Below, piece by piece: positions 3,001 to 47,129 of a DNA stretch of 64,000 nucleotides. Each line of letters begins with the position of its first letter. Position 1 is the first letter of the stretch. This stretch comes from Fistulifera solaris (taxonomy: Eukaryota). The stretch spans positions 558,001 to 622,000 of the forward strand of contig AP026127.1 of the NCBI GenBank assembly GCA_030295235.1, in the 5' to 3' direction. A model generated the notes under the pieces. It made no database searches. It was not told the DNA's origin and saw nothing but the letters and a program-made list of their open reading frames with translations. The position numbers were made by a program, and so were the translations under genes.

Positions 3001-6000
3001 TGTATTTCAAAATTGGTGGCATTATTCGAGAAACAGAGGAAGAGTCTAGTGATATTGATAGTGACTGGTCAAGGACAAGCTCAATGTCTCTCATCTCGGA
3101 GATGGGCGGAACCCATATTTCTGTAAATCGGCTTCTTAATGCTGGACTGAGCTCTCGCTTACCAAAATCACCACCAGGATTCATCGTAGCGAAGAGACGA
3201 AATCGCTTATGACTCTTGATTACTAAATCTTCCGGTGACAAAGAGCCTTTTTCTGCCAAAACCAGCGTTCGGGCAGGTTCGAGAACAGAATTAAGCCGCT
3301 CAAGAACTGCGTCTTCAGCCAAGCTCATTTCATCCAGTAATATCATGTGACCTTCTTTCATAGCTTGAACCAACGAACCGTCAATCCATTCAAAGAGTGC
3401 GTGATGACGCTGAATAAGGAGTTCTAAATGACCTAGTTCGAAAGGTACATCGACTTCAGGGAAAGGAATGGCTGTGCTATCTGCGGAATTTAATTTTCGT
3501 CGTTTGGCGCTCATGTCGTGATCATCAAGGTGCTTTTCTTTTGCGCTTTTTAAAATGCTTTTCGCGTACCGGACAATAGCCTCATCATCTTCCTCTGAAA
3601 AATGCACAGCATCATGTTGCTCCAACAGATTCCTTACATTCAAGGGGACTTCGATCGTCTGTGGTAACCAGGGCATCTTGCTTGTGAAAAGGAGATCGCG
3701 AAGACAAGTCAAGAGACTTTGCAGTACTGCTGAACGGCCGCGCACAGGCCTAAGACCCCCAATAAGGTCTGAGATTTCGGTAGTTGCGTGACAGTTTACC
3801 ACGTCTAGCTTGTAGTCTAGAACTGATGCGAGATATTGTACAACGGTGGTCTTCCCGCAGCCAGTGTCTTGTAGCAGCGACGCGAAGCAGAATTTAAGCA
3901 GGATAACACATGATGAAGCAGGTAAATTGTATGCACGTACCTCCAACGAGCAAAACGGGTTCTTCATTCTTGATGCAGCGTAAAACTAAAGTCAAAAGTC
4001 TTAGCAGGGAACGAGTGGGCGCTATTCGGGTACCCTCGACATCGTTCTTCGCTCTTAATTGGTCAAGAAGAACCCTAGCCTCGGATAAATCCCCATAGTA
4101 TGCCTCTTCAATGTTAACACAAACTCCTAGCTTCTCTTCGATTTCACTCTTCACGCATTCCTTCTCCTCCAGCGACCTCAAGCGCTCAGCAAGTAACATG
4201 TATCCTTGTTGTGCAAGTTCTGACTTAGAAGAACAACCTCGTCCAGCCCAGCGAAGCAGATCACGAGGAGTAATTAAGCTGTCCCTGCCAAGAAATACAC
4301 CGCTGCTTCCTCTTCGTTGACGCAAACCTTCCATCACGGCGACGAGTTGTTTTGCGTGAGATAGAGGAGCTGAACACCTAAGATGCAATATATTCACCAT
4401 TTCATGGCTGGGTATGTCCGGAACAAACATTTCCACAAAACGGTTGCGAAATGCTCTTGACAAAGGCTTTCTTCCGCCATATGCTCCGCTTGGATTCTGA
4501 GTAGCAAATAAACGGAAACGCGGATGCGCTTTCACGGTTTCGTTTATTTCCGAAAGATAAAGCTCCCTGTTATCGTCAAGAAGGCGATTCAGGGCTTCCA
4601 AAATGTCACTAGGCGCTAGATTCAATTCATCCAATATAACCCAATCACCTCTTCGTAAAGCCCGCACAAGAAGCCCATCTTGAAATGTTAAAGACCCATT
4701 TGCATCAGCTGTGAAACCACCCGTATACTCCTGGATATCAGTGTGCTCATGATTATTTATGCGCACGACTCGGTGACCGCATCTGGCAGCGATATATTCA
4801 ACAATTGTTGTCTTTCCCGCCGAGGTAGGCCCTTCTAGCAGGACGGGCCATGGGCCTGCGGCAATGGATGCTGTCAATCTACGCAAATTTTTCTCAGTAC
4901 TGGGAGTTAGAATGAATTTCGACCGCGGTTCAGTTATAGTCTCGCTGGACCAGTCAATCGGGTCAAGCGGGCCTTTCTCGATCCAGAACGGTTTGATCAG
5001 CAAGTACTCGGAACCTTCGTTACCACCTGGACGCCTCCCAGGATGTTGCATCTCTTTTGATCCAAGACCTTTTCCTAAATTTGACATTATGGCTTTCTTA
5101 ACAATCTTTGACGACTTTTCATCAAGCACGCCCTGAAAAGCAAGGGTAAAGCCTTCTACTAAGGCTCTTTGCAACGACAAATGTTGCTTAAGCACAAGAC
5201 TTTTCGCAGCAGATAGCGCACGCGTCAGACTTCTCAGTGTATAGCGTGGTCGCTGACCATTACCATCAGCGAGCGAAGTCTGCGAAAGTGCACGGCATTC
5301 CAAGTATGTATCTACACAAGCAATGACTGATTCTACGTGATGAGGCTCTCTATCGCTTGCCGGTAGAGCACCACTCAGGTATCGTCCCGCTACTTTTCTG
5401 AGTTCAAGTGGATCAATTAGCTCATCCACGTAAAGTTCAGTAAAGCGCGATCGCACATTTGCGTTCAAATCTCTTTTCCCAGTATCTGTAGCTGGATTCA
5501 TGGCCGCGAAAAGTCGAAATTCGGGGTGTCGTGAAAGCGCGACGGAATCACCACGTTCTGTCAGCGTAATACTACTGTTGGAATCGTCTAAGAGCCCACA
5601 CAGCCTCTGGAGAGTTTCCGACGAAGCTAAATTGATTTCATCAAGCAAAACCCATGAGCCGCATCGTATAGCATCCACTAAAGCACCTTCCGTAAACACA
5701 AAAGCAAAGCCAGAGTCGCACGCTAAACGCTGCTGCTCGAAACGATCAGCCATACTCTTAAATCGATTCCACGACTCAAAAGAACTTTTATCGCTTGTTC
5801 CTTCTTTTCGTTTTTCTTCCAACTTTTCCAAACCTTGTGCCGCTGCACGGCGAAAGCACTGCGATAACTTCTTCCACTGCTTTTTTCTCAAGCATGAAGT
5901 AGTAAAATCGAGAAAGCTAGCATTCTGTTTGCGTGAAAAAGTGACAGTGAAGAGGTCTACAAACTGTTGATGGACGAGCCGAGCCACGTGTTCGATCTCG

Positions 6001-8198
6001 AGAGGACGAAAGCCACCCAACAAATCAGTCGAATCAGTTTGAAGTGATAAGTTTTGAACGATCAACTCGCGTCCGCAAAGGCTCGCCAGATGTTGCAATA
6101 CTGTCGTTTTACCGCAACCAGTTTCTCCTACCAGTAGCGTAGGCTCATTCTGGCGGACGCAGACAGCAATCGATTCCATAAGACGTAACGAGTTTTGAGT
6201 TTGAGCAAAGGTAGCAGTCTGTTTGCGGTTTAAAGCCTGGAAGTTGGATATGTGTATTCTGCATCTGCCCAACTCTGTAGCGTTCGGATGCAAAATAATT
6301 TCGGGCCCTCTGAAATTTACATAGCTTGTGGCGAGTTCCGCAGATATTCCCCACATCGGTGCAGCGATACTCCGTACGAAGTTATCTCTTTCATGAGAGT
6401 CAGGACAGGCTGCTATAAAAACATCAAAAGTTTCCCCCAGACAAAGAGTGCGTTGGCCTTCAGTGATATACTGCGCATTGGCCTCAAATGTAATAGTCTG
6501 CTTGATACGCGCCAGCAGTTTAAAAAGATCCCTGACACTTGGTGTGCGTCCGGACCATTTCAACATCTTATGGTCAGGCCCCTCCCCATTCCGCCCACTT
6601 GGATCCATAGAGCAAAATACTTTCAGAGCCGTTTGAATGACAATATTTGGTAGCTCCGGATAAAGCCCAGTAGCGACCTCTTGGAGTTCATTCGAAGTAA
6701 GCGGGTTAACCTCCACCTTTGCCAATATGCTGGAAACATTACACGTCCTTTCCCTGCCTTATTTGTGAGCGTAGCGAAAAGCCGAAAGCGAGGATGACAC
6801 CGCTCCAGTTTCCCATTTCCTAAAGGCAGCAAGCCGTCCTTAAGTAACTGAACTAACGAAGCCTGAATTTCGAAAGGAACCGTATCCAAATCTTCAAACA
6901 ACACCCATCGACCCTCCCGTACAGCCCGTGTCAATGCCCCCGGACGCCATTCAAATTGCCCAGGAATATCAGTAGCAGTGTAGGTTCCAATCAGTGTTTT
7001 TGTATCCGTTTCTTCGTCGACGTGAAGTTCTAGCAAAACGTCGTCGTTACTCCCGCCAAAGAGTCGAGCTACCTCACGCACCAAACTGGACTTGCCAGAT
7101 CCTTGCTGACCCGTCAAAAGAATGGGATAGGGAGCACAAAGAGCCGCTCCGAGACGCGTCAAGTTTTGGGCTGTAGTTTTGGTATGTACAAGGGATGCTG
7201 GTCTCAGCGAAGATATCGAGTTTTGAAGAGCGTCATGTTTCACAAAAGGATGCCCCGACCAACCTCTATCAAATAAGGGTGCAGAGGAATATGCTCACGA
7301 ATCAGCTCTGCCGAAGGCATATAGAACGACTCATCGTCGGTATTGGTCCACAATATTGTAGTTCGACCCTCCACATAAAGGGATTGCACAACTTCCTCTT
7401 CCCGATCCAGATCCCACGGATGCGGCACCCAAGGAACGAGCTCTTCCTCCACGCCACGATCCGCATAAAACTCGGCTTTGACTTGACTAGAAAGCTGAAG
7501 AAGCCACGCCACTGCTCTTACGGTGTGCCATTTTGTAGCAGGGTGATTGTCTTTCTCGTCCGAATTCAACCATCCAAAAATCGGAGCCCAATTCCACAAC
7601 GAGGATAGTACTTTGTGATGCCTCATTTGACGACAATAAAAACGACATAGTCGATGCGTAGCTTCAGCAAGCGACCAGTTTGGGATTTCCGTTAACGGGC
7701 ATTGTGGAAAGGTCCGAAACACGTCCGTGACAAGAGGCTCCAGATGAGGAGCGACCGGTAGCCAAATCGAAAAGAGGGAGAAAAAGCGACTGGTATTCCT
7801 CATTGAACGAGGTGCAAATACGTGCGGCGACATCCATCGCGACCGGAGCCATCGCACGAAGCAAAATGCGGAGATAGTCCACTCGGCGCCATTTGTACAG
7901 GACCTGTTCGTCTTCAATTTCGTCGTCTTCCGTCGGAGGGGGGATCATTCCGGGACTTCAGCTCTTGTCGCGCCGGCAAATCATCCACCGGAGTTTCTAA
8001 CGTGTCGAGATGCGAGGCTTGCAAAAGCAGTCTAGCAATCTGTTCTAAATAATCCGAAAGATCTCCTGCATCGCAGTCCATAGGATCCGAACGAGCAACA
8101 AGGGCCACCGCGGAACGAATACGCTGCAGGTACAAAAGCGTCAGATTCGCTGTATCCGCATCGACCGCTTTCGCTTCATCTCCCGCTGCAACACTCAT
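1..8198 (-). CDS. MDN1: Midasin/Rea1 AAA+ ATPase, 5' portion; runs off the left edge; at least one intron (~3869-3940) and several frameshifts
   Basis: Successive AAA modules with Walker A (GQQGSGKS, GETGCGKT, GPTSAGKT, GSPGVGKT) and Walker B (WVLLDEINLA, WVILDELNLA) motifs, plus FRLFATQNP...GGRKPLSRAFRNRF, across ORFs 6623-7243, 3894-6725, 2792-3967 and 2104-2829. Confidence 0.95.
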
Positions 8199-41465: not shown

Positions 41466-42153
41466 TTATTCAGTTACACGCATTTCATAAACTTCATCGC
41501 GCAACAAATGCACTCGTTGAATCTCTGTGGACGAACCCGAACTTCCATTATTCGATTCATGACGACGACTCTCATTGTTCGGCGCCATGAGCAAAGCCAC
41601 CTTATCGCCTAACCAAACTACCGCCGAACCAACCCCTAGCACGAAACGCTCAATCAAGTTGTGACGATGTACATAATCCGCCGTCGCACGGTATCCCTTC
41701 AAGAGACCCTGCTTCGTTTTTTTCCAAAATATGATGTTTCTCATCGGCTTCCTTGGCGCGCTGCCACAAGTTCGCGGCAGCCTGTTGCGATTCTTCCACA
41801 ATATTGTACTGCTCATCCAACTGTTTGGCTTTGTGATGTACCAACAAAGCCACTTCACCGACCGCACGCGCGGTATCGCGAAGGCCGGACGCATTCGGTT
41901 GTTCGCAGGCAAACTTGGCCCCCACACCCAAAACCACCGCCAAGATAGGCCCGCCGACCAAACAGCCCACGACGGCGGAACCGATACCGGCGGCTTTGGC
42001 GAGTCGTTGTTCTTCGAAAGCTGCATCGTGAGTATCATTCATTTGTTCGGCATTCACAATGACATCGTTTTCGTCGACGACGACAGTACTCGGTTCATTC
42101 GTCGATACGAGAGTGAACTCAAAGCTATCGTCTGACTTTTTGGATTGCGTCAT
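41466..42153 (-). CDS. Hypothetical membrane-associated protein; frameshift near 41720
   Basis: ORFs 41650-42153 and 41466-42038 join; Gly/Ala-rich hydrophobic hairpin GCLVGGPILAVVLGVG. Confidence 0.65.
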
Positions 42154-42642: not shown

Positions 42643-45239
42643 ATGACGAAGACGGCAGCACTTACCATTCGCGCCGTAGTATTTTGCTTGTGGCTCATGA
42701 TACGAAGCATTCATTGTTTCCAACTCAAACAGACATCACCTCGTACACTGACTAGAATCATGTCCACCCAAATCTCCAATCTAATACCCAGCAATCAAGA
42801 GCTGGTGCAACAGCGATTGCAGGTAGCGCGCGAAAAGCGAGCAGCACGCACGCGGTCGATTCAACAAATCCAGGAACGGAATATGCATCTCAAAAACATA
42901 CTTCATTCCAACCAAACAGTACCCATGTATGCGGTCAAAGTCACCGTTTGTGATGAGTTGAGAGACGAACTCAAATTGAGTGGACGGGAAAAGAGAGGAC
43001 GCGTGTTCTTTGAATCACAGTCCGACGCGGTGCGATCCTTGAAAGGACTGCGGTTTGAATTGCATGCCTTCTTTCGGGCGTTACGAAAAGGGAGTTTTAT
43101 GTTGTCGGCTGGATATCCCTTGGTAGAAGAAGATGGGACAATCAGCAGCAGCAAGACCGTGGATGATGTGTTATGGAAGATTGAATCCGATCAAGACGTG
43201 ATTGATACGTTCCAGAAAGCTGATTCGTTTTTCCAAGACAATACTTCTACTTTAAAACGACCGTCAATTGTAATCAAAGTACAAAAAGATCCGAATGCTG
43301 CTCCACCGCCACCTCCTCCCGCATACCTGCAAAATATGCCCGATCCGGCTAGCAGCCCGACGATAACTATGCTATCGTTCTACTCGTTTCCTCCTGGAGG
43401 AGTGGCTAATCCGGAAGACTTTGCGAATCTGTTGCGGAAAGCATGGAAGCCCTTTCAAGCCTTGGGTCGTATTTACGTCGCAAGGGAAGGTATTAATGCT
43501 CAAATGAGTGTTCCAACCAATGTATTGGACAATTTTATGGCATGCTGTCAAAGTATTCCTGAGTTGGGATCGTACATGGAAAATGGAATCAATATTGACC
43601 CCATTCCGTTGACACGTGACGAATTTGCGACCGCAGGAACACCCGCGGCAGGTGGTGAGCCCGCACCACCGTTCATGGGTCTCCACGTCCGCGTGCGCCG
43701 ACAGATCGTGGCCGATGGTTTGGACGAGTCGTTGGATTGGCAATCTGCGGGATATGACATGCCGCCCCTGGAGTGGCATCAAAAATTAAAGGAAGAAAAG
43801 GATAATCTGGTCCTTTTAGATTGTCGCAATACATACGAGACCGACGTCGGTCGCTTTGAAGGAGCAGAACCGTTGGGAACGGAAAACTTTCGAGACAGCT
43901 GGGCCGTTTTGGAAGATCGTCTCAAAGACCTTCCTAAAGATACCCCTATTTATGGTTATTGCACGGGTGGCATTCGATGCGTCAAAGTTGGCGCTTATGT
44001 GACACAAAAGATGGGCTTTAAGAATTTCACTCGTCTCGCTGGAGGTATCGTAGCGTACGATCGAACATTACAAGAGGAAGCTCCAACAGAAGAACCACTT
44101 TTTAAAGGCACCAATTTTGTCTTCGACGGGCGTCTAGGTCGACCTATTACAGAAGATTCACTGGGAACTTGTTTAACATGCGGAGGAGAGACATCTTTGG
44201 TGAGCAACTGTCGCAATGAGAACTGTCACAAACGTATGATTCAATGTGAAAACTGCAGGACTTCATTTCTGGGAACTTGTTCCGATGCGTGTCGACATCG
44301 CCTAGTTCGAGGAACTTCTGTCTCTATTACATCGCGACCAGAGGAAAGCAAAGTGTCGTTCAAAAATCTAGAGGACTATAGCTCGGGACACAGTTCGCCG
44401 ACGCCCACTGTGTACAAAGAGATCGAGTTCAATACCAAATCGCTTATTCCTTCTGGGTCCCATATGATATCAGGAGACGCTCAAGGTCGTCTACTGGCAC
44501 AACTTACCTCCATGACACGAGAAGGGCGTGTGTTGGAGCTCGGGACATTTACCGGGTACAGCACGATTTGTCTCATCGAGGGAGCAGGGAACGTGGCCAA
44601 GATAACGGGGCAAAAGGTACCAGAGAATCTGGTCCATTTGTGCTGACGATGGAACGAGATTCAAAAGCATTCAATGTTGCTACTGCTCACGTCAAGGCTG
44701 TGGCTGAACACGGTTTATTTGAAGCGGGCGCAGAAGCGATATGCAGCTTCCGGGGAGCCGATGTTCCATCTATAACGTCAAGCACTGTATCATTGTTGTA
44801 TGAAGAGTCGGTTGGTGTCGAACTTCGTCGTGTCTCGGATGCCCTGGCTGCCGTTGAAAGCATTGCAAATGGAGCAGAGGAGGATCTCTCTGCTTTCGAT
44901 CTGGTCTTTGTTGATGCGGACAAAACACGTTTACTGGACTACGTAGAGGCATGCTTGTTGAACGATCGTGTTTTGAAGAAAGGGGGTCTAATTGTTGTAG
45001 ACAATGTTCTCTGGAAGGGTTTGGTTTTGGATGCCAGTCGACACGATAGCTTCTCCTCGGCATCCGATGACGATGACGAGGATTCCGATGAAGAAACAGC
45101 GGAACTCCGCAGGAATCGACGAGCTAGAAAGCTAGCTAACAAAATGCATAGATTCAATGCAGCAATTGCCCAAGACAAGCGCGTTGAAGTATTGGTAATT
45201 CCAGTGCGGGATGGTTTAAGCGTCATCCGAAAAAAGTAA
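42643..45239 (+). CDS. Fusion of TrhO/YceA (UPF0176) tRNA U34 hydroxylase with a Methyltransf_3-type O-methyltransferase; plastid presequence; one frameshift at the G-run ~44607-44610
   Basis: GRIYVAREGINAQ, LDCRNTYETDVGRF, YCTGGIRCVK, FVFDGR, Cys-rich tail; then MISGDAQGRLL, VLELGTFTGYS, FDLVFVDADK, GGLIVVDNVLWKG, PVRDGLS. Confidence 0.9.
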
Positions 45240-45692
45240 TACTCCCTATAAATTTTTGGTTGGGTTAGGTGAAAAAAAATTTGTGCAAGGAAAAAAATCT
45301 TATTCGCAAACGAAGAAAAGAATAGCCGAAGAAGTGTTTTATCAAGGAGTAGTTAACAAACAATGCTATCCACTAGATTATAATTCCAGATAATCCCCAT
45401 GATAATTTTTTTCTCAACTTTTGAAACGCATCTCTAGATTTACTATGGCCGTAAGTGTAGATTACTTTTTTCCCGACTGAATTCCAGTCCTCAGTTTAGC
45501 GTCATCACGCATCACGCATTGGCGCATTGCGCATTTCGGTAGTCTTTATCCGTTATGCACCATTGTTATTCATAAATCACCATTTTTACATGATATATCA
45601 TGATATTTGTTACCTTTGTTCCTATTGCTGCCATGCTTGGTCATCTGAGAGGGTCAATCTACAGCAGCAGAAGGACAAACGATTTTAAACCA

Positions 45693-45945
45693 ATGATGGC
45701 TGATCATTCGAACAATGACGGCGATTTTTTGACGACTCAAGAAGCACAGATCTATTTTCCCACAGGACCCTTGACCCCTGAGCGTAAAGAGCTTTCGCAA
45801 TATATTCAACAACTCAAGGCCGAAAGGAAAGGCGATGATGTTAACGAAAAAGGCGGCCGTGCATGTACAGGAGAGCCGCGCGTAGACCCATCCCGACAAA
45901 TTCAACCCAATCAGGGGGGACTCGGAATGGGTCGATGATTGGTAA
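45693..45945 (+). CDS. Small hypothetical protein (possible frameshift)
   Basis: MMADHSNND...YFPTGPLTPERKELSQYIQQLK; alternative-frame end HPDKFNPIRGDSEWVDDW*. Confidence 0.35.
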
Positions 45946-46122: not shown

Positions 46123-47129
46123 CTATACATTATCGTCACAAGAATGAAAGGCGGTGGGTGCAGTACTCGAGGCTTTCGGATTCCTCACATTTTGCCCCGG
46201 TGGACTCAACAACACCTGACGAATGCCTGCCGGATGTTTCCCTAACGGCCAGGGCATTGCAAAGGAACGATAAATGCAGTTGGCAATGTGAAGTAGGGTT
46301 TTTGCAGCGCTTTACCGGATCCGGGCATGACGGAAAGCGGCTGCTCTCGAGGTTGCAACGGGCTAAAGATAGGATCACAAACCACCGGGGAGTCTCGGTT
46401 CATTTCGCGATGCTCGACGATTTTCGACAGAGTGTTCAAAAGCAATGCCTGCATGACATCTTTGGCAAACTGGTGATTGGCTATTCTGCGGATCGCCGAC
46501 CGAGAAAAGCGAAAGAATTGTGTCTTTTCCAGAGTCCGACAACGTAAATTGACTTTGACAAAGATACTCGAATTATCGAAGAAGCCGACATGCGCAATAT
46601 CAAACATTTCCGCCGAGCCGAGAATTCTGTCTACCTTCAAATCTGTTGAAGAACCGTCGTAGATCTTGAGACTGACTTGACCATGATAAATAATATAAAA
46701 GTAATGCTCCGTTGGAATATCCTCATCACTACCGAGGGTGACGAATTCCATGTCTGGCGCTACAATGGTCTTGAAAAGACGTCGGGATAATCCTCCCGTA
46801 CGATAAAATAAGCACCACAAGGCTTCTTCATTTTCATTCAGCGCCACGTAGCGTTCATCATTCAGAAGATTGACAAGCGAAGTGCCGTGCACGTAAAGTC
46901 CCACCACGGCCCAGATCAAGCTATCCAACGGCAAGCCATCGGCTTTACTGTCACCCCACAGTGGCGAACCAAGTAGCAAATTAAGAAGAAGCATCAAATA
47001 TGCAGCAAAGAGGAAGAGGCGAATAACCAGCAAGTCACCGTGCATGCCGGAAAGCATAAAGAACAAACTCGCAAGCTGCATCCATATTGACAATGGCGTG
47101 TAAATGGATTTCGCCGCCATTTCACTCAA
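46123..47129 (-). CDS. Popeye-domain (POPDC-like) membrane protein with cNMP-binding-like domain; frameshift near 46290
   Basis: Three N-terminal TM helices (QLASLFFML...DLLVIRLFL...IWAVVGLYVH), then EEALW..FY..GLSRRLF and FYIIYHGQV. Confidence 0.75.

Follow-up and report, generated by a model that had tools for sequence, protein, structure and literature searches.

The closest described relative of the gene treated here is a fusion that Sakai et al. (2019, Nat Commun 10:2858) reported as yceA-trmR from Phaeodactylum tricornutum and Phytophthora spp., and which, with other clues, led them to yceA as the second tRNA hydroxylase, TrhO. In its discussion, the occurrence of eukaryotic trhO homologs is taken as a sign of 'the presence of an xo5U-type modification in eukaryotes' (xo5U, 5-hydroxyuridine derivatives), and the passages on the fusion leave open whether eukaryotes have wobble modifications of this type. 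TrmR itself has an S-adenosylmethionine (SAM)-binding motif and Asp/Asp/Asn metal ligands, belongs to Pfam family PF01596, and represents a subgroup of about 3% of that family (Ryu 2018). For the human TrhO homolog, TSTD2, a 2023 review reports that no information on function was to be had. Here we describe a fusion of this kind from the diatom Fistulifera solaris, found at 42643-45239 on the forward strand of a 64,000 nucleotide (nt) stretch of contig AP026127.1 (positions 558,001 to 622,000; assembly GCA_030295235.1), which is referred to as the window and supplies all coordinates below. After correction of one frame break, this region codes for a single protein of about 865 amino acids (aa) in which an apparent bipartite plastid-type presequence, a helix with a PB1-like domain, a TrhO module and a cation-dependent class I O-methyltransferase follow one another in that order. 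It is an intact diatom nuclear gene for one polypeptide, and the complete reading, that of an intact three-part fusion that would make 5-methoxyuridine at position 34 (mo5U34) of diatom plastid tRNA, is one to which we give an even chance.

Two open reading frames (ORFs) cover the gene: one of 667 aa at 42643..44646 (+), opened by an ATG at 42643 with an in-frame stop five codons upstream, and one of 196 aa at 44649..45239 (+), in the next frame. In the first, Pfam finds UPF0176_N (PF17773) at residues 242-355 (43366..43707, 55.9 bits), Rhodanese (PF00581) at 377-473 (43771..44061, 37.5 bits) and Rhodanese_C (PF12368), the Cys-rich tail, at 488-551 (44104..44295, 61.5 bits), followed on residues 584-655 by profile positions 4-73 of Methyltransf_3 (PF01596), with 21.9 bits against a cut-off of 22. 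Positions 101-204 of the same profile match the second ORF with 80 bits. The N-terminal part of the methyltransferase occupies 44392..44616 in the frame of the first ORF, and the C-terminal part, with the stop codon, 44616..45239 in that of the second. These Pfam and motif positions agree with a preliminary description of the locus, which had read an extra N-terminal domain of about 200 aa, a complete TrhO module and a methyltransferase in series; its further statement that the fusion junction does not depend on the break is borne out by the Pfam order, the orthologs and the contigs alike.

The orthologs run uninterrupted across the break, reading ...AK(I/V)xGQK-GTRESGPFVLTMERD with GQKGT at the site, and in their alignment the window keeps to frame 1 as far as QK and takes up frame 0 at GT, so that one base must be missing within CAAAAGG (44611-44617). 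Contigs of four out of four public runs, three of them of one organism and one a wetland metagenome, carry an extra A behind 44611, and do so at full depth (27.8/27.8, 113.8/113.8, 202.6/202.6 and 10.5/10.5). The frame break is an assembly error, because the contigs of every run have one more A and this restores the reading of the orthologs; the gene is whole, and the A-run at 44612..44615, four bases long in the assembly, is A5 in the organism. The preliminary description had correctly put the break inside the methyltransferase but misplaced it at the G-run 44607-44610, one base before the true site, and the genuine frameshift that it had considered, one truncating the methyltransferase, is contradicted by the extra A in all four runs. 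It is very improbable that the window copy is a true pseudogene, that is, one of two diverged copies with a genuine one-base deletion. The frameshift is present in the assembly as given, decay of one copy is conceivable because two locus versions, which differ by about 9%, are present together in these runs, and the compared sequences are contigs and not reads, from which rare variants are dropped, with the best-matching run perhaps being the source sample itself; yet a contig otherwise identical to the window (X3 record 23, 44170-44863, no other letters and one gap) still has the extra A, the A4 form was seen in none of the contigs of the four runs, and the 2.6 kb hold no further stop or indel. 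An intron need not be invoked for the intact gene either, since the ortholog alignment is uninterrupted except at this break; inspection by eye shows a sole GT..AG pair across it (44617-44658), which with its length of 42 nt keeps the frame, and would delete the conserved LTMERD.

The two locus versions were seen between 42400 and 45400 (runs X1, X2, X3 and X5), for example with 48 differences in 532 bases, and look like two diverged copies in one genome, either homeologs or alleles. A 6-base insertion at 42909-42917 in the contigs corresponds to the two residues that Fistulifera solaris FisN_2Lh249, the best match in the databases, has in addition; this protein is 96% identical to the window protein but not identical.

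The TrhO module has the three-domain layout of UPF0176_N, Rhodanese and Rhodanese_C, with each Pfam score above its cut-off. Its best match among PDB sequences is 9j5o, a 'tRNA uridine(34) hydroxylase' (4e-29), and 4f67 is also among the best solved relatives. The active-site loop CTGGIR (residues 440-445, 43960-43977) aligns with the CTGG(V/I)R loop of both structures and is nearly invariant in 48 sequences, and the passages of Sakai et al. (2019) on the corresponding E. coli motif report C200, T201, G203 and R205 as essential. The basic strand HVRVRRQIV (43684-43710), of the acylphosphatase-like first part, aligns with KVKLRKEIV of 4f67 with basic residues kept, and the cysteines of the Cys-rich tail are nearly invariant (alignment A3). 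By all its sequence features save one curated cut-off, taken up below, the module would be classed as TrhO.

In the methyltransferase, the GTFTGY motif and the D, D and N columns of the metal ligands (DADK, DN) are invariant in the alignment of relatives (A2) and are present in the window, where the SAM motif LELGTFTGYS lies at 44533-44562, FVDADK at 44907-44924 and VDNVLW at 44997-45014. An insertion of about 10 aa around GQKGTRESGP, at the place of the assembly error, and a second one of about 35 aa after the ERD motif are shared by diatoms and the bolidophyte Triparma; the alignment has neither in red algae, Chattonella or Mallomonas. At the site that we would match, by position only, with TrmR Glu-85/Arg-86, diatoms and Cyanidiococcus have ER, and Rhodosorus, Chattonella and Mallomonas have DI, EI or DT.

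Plastid proteins of diatoms carry a bipartite presequence, in which an N-terminal signal peptide with an 'ASAFAP'-type motif, and with Phe, another aromatic residue or Leu at +1 of its cleavage site, is followed by a transit-peptide-like stretch. The window ORF opens with MTKTAALTIRAVVFCLWLMIRSIHC/FQLK, an uncharged hydrophobic stretch ending IHC/F; residues 1-25, ending AVVFCLWLMIRSIHC (42643..42717), are signal-peptide-like and precede Phe26, and residues 26-47, FQLKQTSPRTLTRIMSTQISNL (42718..42783), form a stretch whose composition (22 residues with three K/R, no D/E and seven S/T) suggests a transit peptide. A crude heuristic of our own was applied to the window and to 101 orthologs with the anchor motif and a Met start, and 72 of the orthologs tested have an N-terminal extension of at least 35 aa. 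Among these 72, an uncharged hydrophobic stretch was found in 41 (shuffled mean 9.0, maximum 17), and one followed by a small residue and Phe in 27 (shuffled mean 2.7, maximum 7), examples being GASAF/QQ, SVASF/QP and SQAF/QV. The window protein thus apparently has a plastid-type presequence that recurs in orthologs well above the shuffled controls, in agreement with the first reading of IHC-F as a plastid-type signal peptide.

The domain that follows the presequence is predicted to be PB1-like. An AlphaFold2 model of residues 41-240, built with 48 sequences (mean predicted local distance difference test score 90.8), has a 38-residue helix (model residues 11-48, which are residues 51-88 of the protein, 42793..42906) and then a beta-grasp domain at about residues 95-215 (42925..43287). 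When the model was compared by VIA-align with 48,161 chains, all nine matches with Z of at least 8 were PB1 domains (Z 9.8 to 8.3), the best being 1wmh_B (Z 9.8, root-mean-square deviation 2.4 A, 82/82 residues aligned). The top PDB matches in Foldseek were also PB1 domains, at E 3.5e-3 and with none at E<=1e-3, and Pfam PB1 gave no match to the domain at E<=0.01. A proline-rich linker, PPPPPP in the window (43303..43320) and PNAPPPPPPPAYL in the ortholog consensus, joins the domain to TrhO. The N-domain profile matches proteins of Mallomonas, a pelagophyte and three further members of the algal clade described below, all outside its training set, and leaves those of Lagenidium, Protostelium and Paulinella unmatched at E<=1e-3, so far as sequence goes suggesting that the domain is restricted to the algal clade. 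It may serve in oligomerisation or partner binding.

Judged from the spread of related sequences, the fusion is real, old and conserved across many eukaryotes. A search of 5.8 billion proteins gave 3411 matches at E<=1e-3 among 8000 scored candidates, of which the best 120 were listed. Precomputed Pfam assignments place PF01596 and the TrhO domains together in 106/120 of these, and phmmer with the three parts of database relative P0001 finds both the TrhO and the methyltransferase segment in 117, and the N-domain as well in 115; the three relatives without a methyltransferase segment are short (535-642 aa). Named sources of the relatives are Seminavis, Cylindrotheca, Nitzschia, Pseudo-nitzschia, Thalassiosira, Cyclotella, Epithemia and Triparma, among others, and since several of these relatives are transcriptome ORFs from MMETSP marked complete, one mRNA carries both modules in these relatives. 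When 1.84 billion cluster representatives were searched exhaustively with HMMER, there were 6098 matches, and among the best 150, which were listed, many of 700-930 aa keep TrhO and the methyltransferase. Organism names were available for 9/30 clusters looked up. The fused forms so named come from Chattonella (a raphidophyte), Mallomonas (a synurophyte), Pelagophyceae sp., Vitrella (a chromerid), and the red algae Rhodosorus and Cyanidiococcus, with the oomycete Lagenidium represented by a low-quality model of 1563 aa. Fused proteins have also been recorded for Paulinella micropora (P0318, 915 aa) and, in a transcriptome, in the amoebozoan Protostelium nocturnum (P0366, 707 aa). None of the nine named clusters is from Viridiplantae, a result that does not show the fusion to be missing there.

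A tree of TrhO domains, with three bacterial TrhOs as its root, puts the eukaryotic domains in one group (support 100) with the amoebozoan and oomycete forms at its base, and unites the diatoms with red algae, Vitrella, Paulinella and other ochrophytes in a clade. Support for this algal clade is not strong (85 and 92 in the Shimodaira-Hasegawa-like approximate likelihood ratio test, SH-aLRT). Its named members bear plastids or, in Paulinella, a chromatophore. The tree fits a diatom form that is the plastid-linked version of an older eukaryotic fusion, and it also shows that the fusion itself did not originate with plastids.

As to function, the TrhO module would use O2 to form 5-hydroxyuridine (ho5U) at U34 of family-box tRNAs, and the fused methyltransferase would then add a methyl group to the hydroxyl, yielding mo5U34 with no release of the tRNA in between; in diatoms, both steps would take place in the plastid. 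That the methyltransferase acts on ho5U follows from the conservation of the fusion and the chemistry of the family, and not from orthology. The physical link to an ho5U-forming enzyme, kept in 117 of the best 120 relatives, supports this, and the methyltransferase probably finishes the U34 modification. The occurrence of mo5U34 in diatom plastid tRNA is a reasonable proposal on this evidence, with the chances about even. The same chemistry had been put forward in the preliminary description, according to which mo5U in plastid tRNAs would also extend wobble decoding by a reduced tRNA set, and it is also the reading of Sakai et al. (2019) where their text treats the fusion.

A number of results weigh against this proposal. 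The TrhO module falls short of the NCBIfam equivalog NF001133, with 160.0 bits for the first ORF and 160.9 for P0001 against a cut-off of 170, the match being split into two stretches by an insertion and the shortfall amounting to 9-10 bits. The methyltransferase is a relative of TrmR at the level of the Pfam family, as had been described, but not at that of the subgroup: Bacillus TrmR (5zw3) ranks 27th of 45 PDB sequences with 29 bits, below 3cbg, 2hnk, 5lhm and 3tr6 among others, and 8k1f, a 'tRNA 5-hydroxyuridine methyltransferase', is unmatched at E<=1e-3 in the PDB search. The domain would thus lie outside the validated TrmR subgroup of PF01596. For the C-terminal half, none of the methyltransferase families of NCBIfam matched at E<=1e-3, and a search for stand-alone methyltransferase relatives in the large protein collection returned, among the 120 matches listed, only fragments of the fused diatom protein and so was uninformative on bacterial relatives.

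Bacterial relatives were sought in a sample of one genome per prokaryote species, scanned with an alignment of red-algal and ochrophyte methyltransferase domains. The scan confirmed 593/600 matched stretches, and the best 80 loci, with 31-40% identity, were used, a set biased toward the query. There are no Bacillota among these 80. Six of the loci (L005 at 4490-7970, L006, L022, L027, L029 and L066), with the cyanobacterial and actinobacterial enzymes nearest to the fused methyltransferase, have a gene for a DDGS-like cyclase on one side and one for an ATP-grasp ligase on the other, as in clusters for mycosporine-like amino acids; the O-methyltransferase of such clusters goes by the name MysB. 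A TrhO gene is found within the flanks at 2/80 loci (L035 and L063), and in the Nostoc genome among those with the cluster layout a different PF01596 paralog (L084) adjoins TrhO. In a quick maximum-likelihood tree of 124 methyltransferase domains, which holds no validated TrmR, one group contains 39/40 eukaryotic domains (SH-aLRT 92), and its sister is the mycosporine-cluster group together with one cyanobacterial sequence (joint clade SH-aLRT 94). The three TrhO-adjacent bacterial enzymes are placed elsewhere, and a clade of these with the eukaryotes is rejected by the approximately unbiased test (p-AU 0.00026), this group having been named post hoc.

At one of the TrhO-adjacent loci, in an alphaproteobacterial single-cell genome (L035, 5971-7540), the genes for a PF01596 methyltransferase (219 aa) and for TrhO (302 aa) lie in this order on one strand with a single base between them, with a 491-aa ORF, gatB-like by eye only, and a 159-aa ORF flanking the pair on either side. 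This is a bacterial operon version of the TrhO-methyltransferase fusion and, with the TrhO-adjacent paralog L084, counts in favor of the proposed pathway. Its methyltransferase is also remote from TrmR, with 5zw3 at rank 35, so that, given its adjacency to TrhO, distance from the Bacillus enzyme does not exclude an ho5U-methylating activity.

These affinities bear on the alternative that the methyltransferase acts on another substrate than ho5U34, such as a small molecule of mycosporine or catechol type, another RNA or a protein group, whether the product of TrhO is ho5U or something else. The position of the nearest sampled bacterial relatives inside clusters with DDGS and ATP-grasp genes favors it, as do the remoteness of the domain from both solved TrmR proteins and the insertion of about 35 aa specific to diatoms and bolidophytes. 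On the other hand, the fusion persists in red algae and ochrophytes as well as in a chromerid, an oomycete and an amoebozoan, which speaks for consecutive steps in a single pathway; the chemistry of the family, in which a metal assists the O-methylation of an acidic hydroxyl, is just what ho5U needs and what TrmR does; and the argument from distance is weak where bacterial PF01596 enzymes next to TrhO are likewise remote. We consider another substrate unlikely and retain ho5U34 as the proposed one.

The proposed site of action also meets with contrary evidence. No hydrophobic stretch was detected by the crude test in 31/72 of the long N-termini, and the gene model of the 96%-identical database protein begins at the second Met and so lacks the presequence. 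The fusion is not plastid-specific, since it is also found in Lagenidium and Protostelium, neither of which is known to have a plastid. The same bifunctional tRNA enzyme might have its site of action in mitochondria, or use alternative starts to reach both organelles, and not be confined to the plastid. Mitochondrial or cytosolic tRNAs are the sole possible substrates of the oomycete and amoebozoan fusions, several diatom orthologs (for example P0029, P0020 and P0017) have Arg/Ser-rich starts with no hydrophobic core, the 31 failures in the test count on this side as well, and the second in-frame Met, residue 40 of the window ORF, would yield a protein free of the presequence. Against this stand the hydrophobic stretch with a small residue and Phe in the window and in 27/72 orthologs, the chance that many of the N-termini failing the test are truncated gene models, and the position of the heterotroph forms outside the algal clade and beyond the hidden Markov model of the PB1-like domain (E<=1e-3), for which reason they may be a different paralog or usage. 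A mitochondrial or dual location is accordingly the improbable option for the diatom protein, and the plastid remains the preferred site.

In the published record, Sakai et al. (2019) was the only paper found on xo5U in plastids or on the diatom fusion, and no follow-up of the eukaryotic fusion was found; the literature located likewise holds no activity, localisation or nucleoside data on eukaryotic members. A review of chloroplast tRNA modifications lists an unidentified U34 modification in land-plant chloroplast tRNAs for Pro, Ala and Val, and reports that mass spectrometry did not detect xo5U in Chlamydomonas. Another paper gives the usual view, in which U34 of plastid family boxes is unmodified and reads all four codons. 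The Chlamydomonas result and the usual view add to the case against mo5U34 in plastids; the modification in land plants adds to the case for it, as does the presence of mo5U in the RNA of Synechocystis. A survey of coconut lists ho5U along with a chloroplast-predicted TrhO homolog, and a preprint on Arabidopsis chloroplast tRNA modification mentions none of ho5U, mo5U, uridine 5-oxyacetic acid (cmo5U) or TrhO. All of these data come from organisms other than diatoms. The author of the preliminary description knew of no earlier account of the fusion; it was printed in Sakai et al. (2019), in the passages cited above, and automatic names from JGI for several of the matches already show both parts ('predicted sulfurtransferase/predicted O-methyltransferase YrrM'). 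With the fusion in print, and with both it and a near-identical ortholog already in the databases, this locus contributes little of its own. Four points were in none of the papers searched: the conserved plastid-type presequence, the PB1-like domain that appears confined to the algal clade, the wide occurrence of the fusion, which reaches from red algae to an amoebozoan, and the placement of the methyltransferase away from TrmR, with mycosporine-cluster enzymes as its nearest sampled bacterial relatives.

The gene family offers a concrete candidate, in transformable diatoms, for mo5U in organellar family-box tRNAs. A wider proposal would be that red-lineage plastids (those of red algae, of diatoms and other ochrophytes, and of chromerids) read family boxes with mo5U34 made by a nucleus-encoded PB1-like/TrhO/methyltransferase enzyme, whose methyltransferase is a mycosporine-type recruit independent of the TrmR of Firmicutes. 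This is tentative, and we regard it as possible but somewhat doubtful. If true, ho5U methylation would have arisen convergently a second time, and the pathway would be the first for xo5U in eukaryotes.

Around the gene, Pfam matches neither of the ORFs that lie at 41650-42153 (-) and 45600-45938 (+). The next ORF downstream, at 46242-47120 (-), codes for 292 aa and matches Pfam POPDC1-3 (Popeye domain) with 34 bits against a cut-off of 28.1.

Set beside known systems, the gene is nearest to the fusion of Sakai et al. (2019), in which TrhO is likewise followed by a PF01596 methyltransferase in one gene, in an organism, Phaeodactylum, that is a diatom like the source of the window, and for which the same logic of two consecutive steps in xo5U synthesis was inferred. 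There, in the passages of the main text that deal with it, the fusion is a clue from comparative genomics only and its organisms are called 'bacterial species', and those passages make no mention of targeting, of the extra N-terminal domain, of a wider distribution or of the eukaryotic product; the supplement may list more species. With bacterial TrhO/YceA (that of E. coli and the solved homologs 9j5o and 4f67), the window module has in common the three Pfam domains and the Cys-rich tail, and its CTGGIR is identical to the E. coli enzyme's active-site loop; it differs in having an insertion in the acylphosphatase-like domain and in standing between a PB1-like domain and a methyltransferase. 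PB1 domains (Par6, aPKC, p62, NBR1, MEKK/MEK5, p67phox) have the beta-grasp fold in common with the N-terminal domain, which is only 8-19% identical to them, lacks a Pfam match and has the 38-residue helix in front. The methyltransferase shares PF01596 membership, the SAM motif, the Asp/Asp/Asn ligands and the proposed reaction with TrmR/YrrM (5zw3, 5zw4) and 8k1f, and departs from TrmR in its lineage-specific insertions. Finally, the O-methyltransferases of mycosporine clusters, at 35-40% identity to the fused domains, are the nearest bacterial clade sampled, but they are stand-alone, small-molecule enzymes within a biosynthetic cluster, with a TrhO fusion in none of the six loci.

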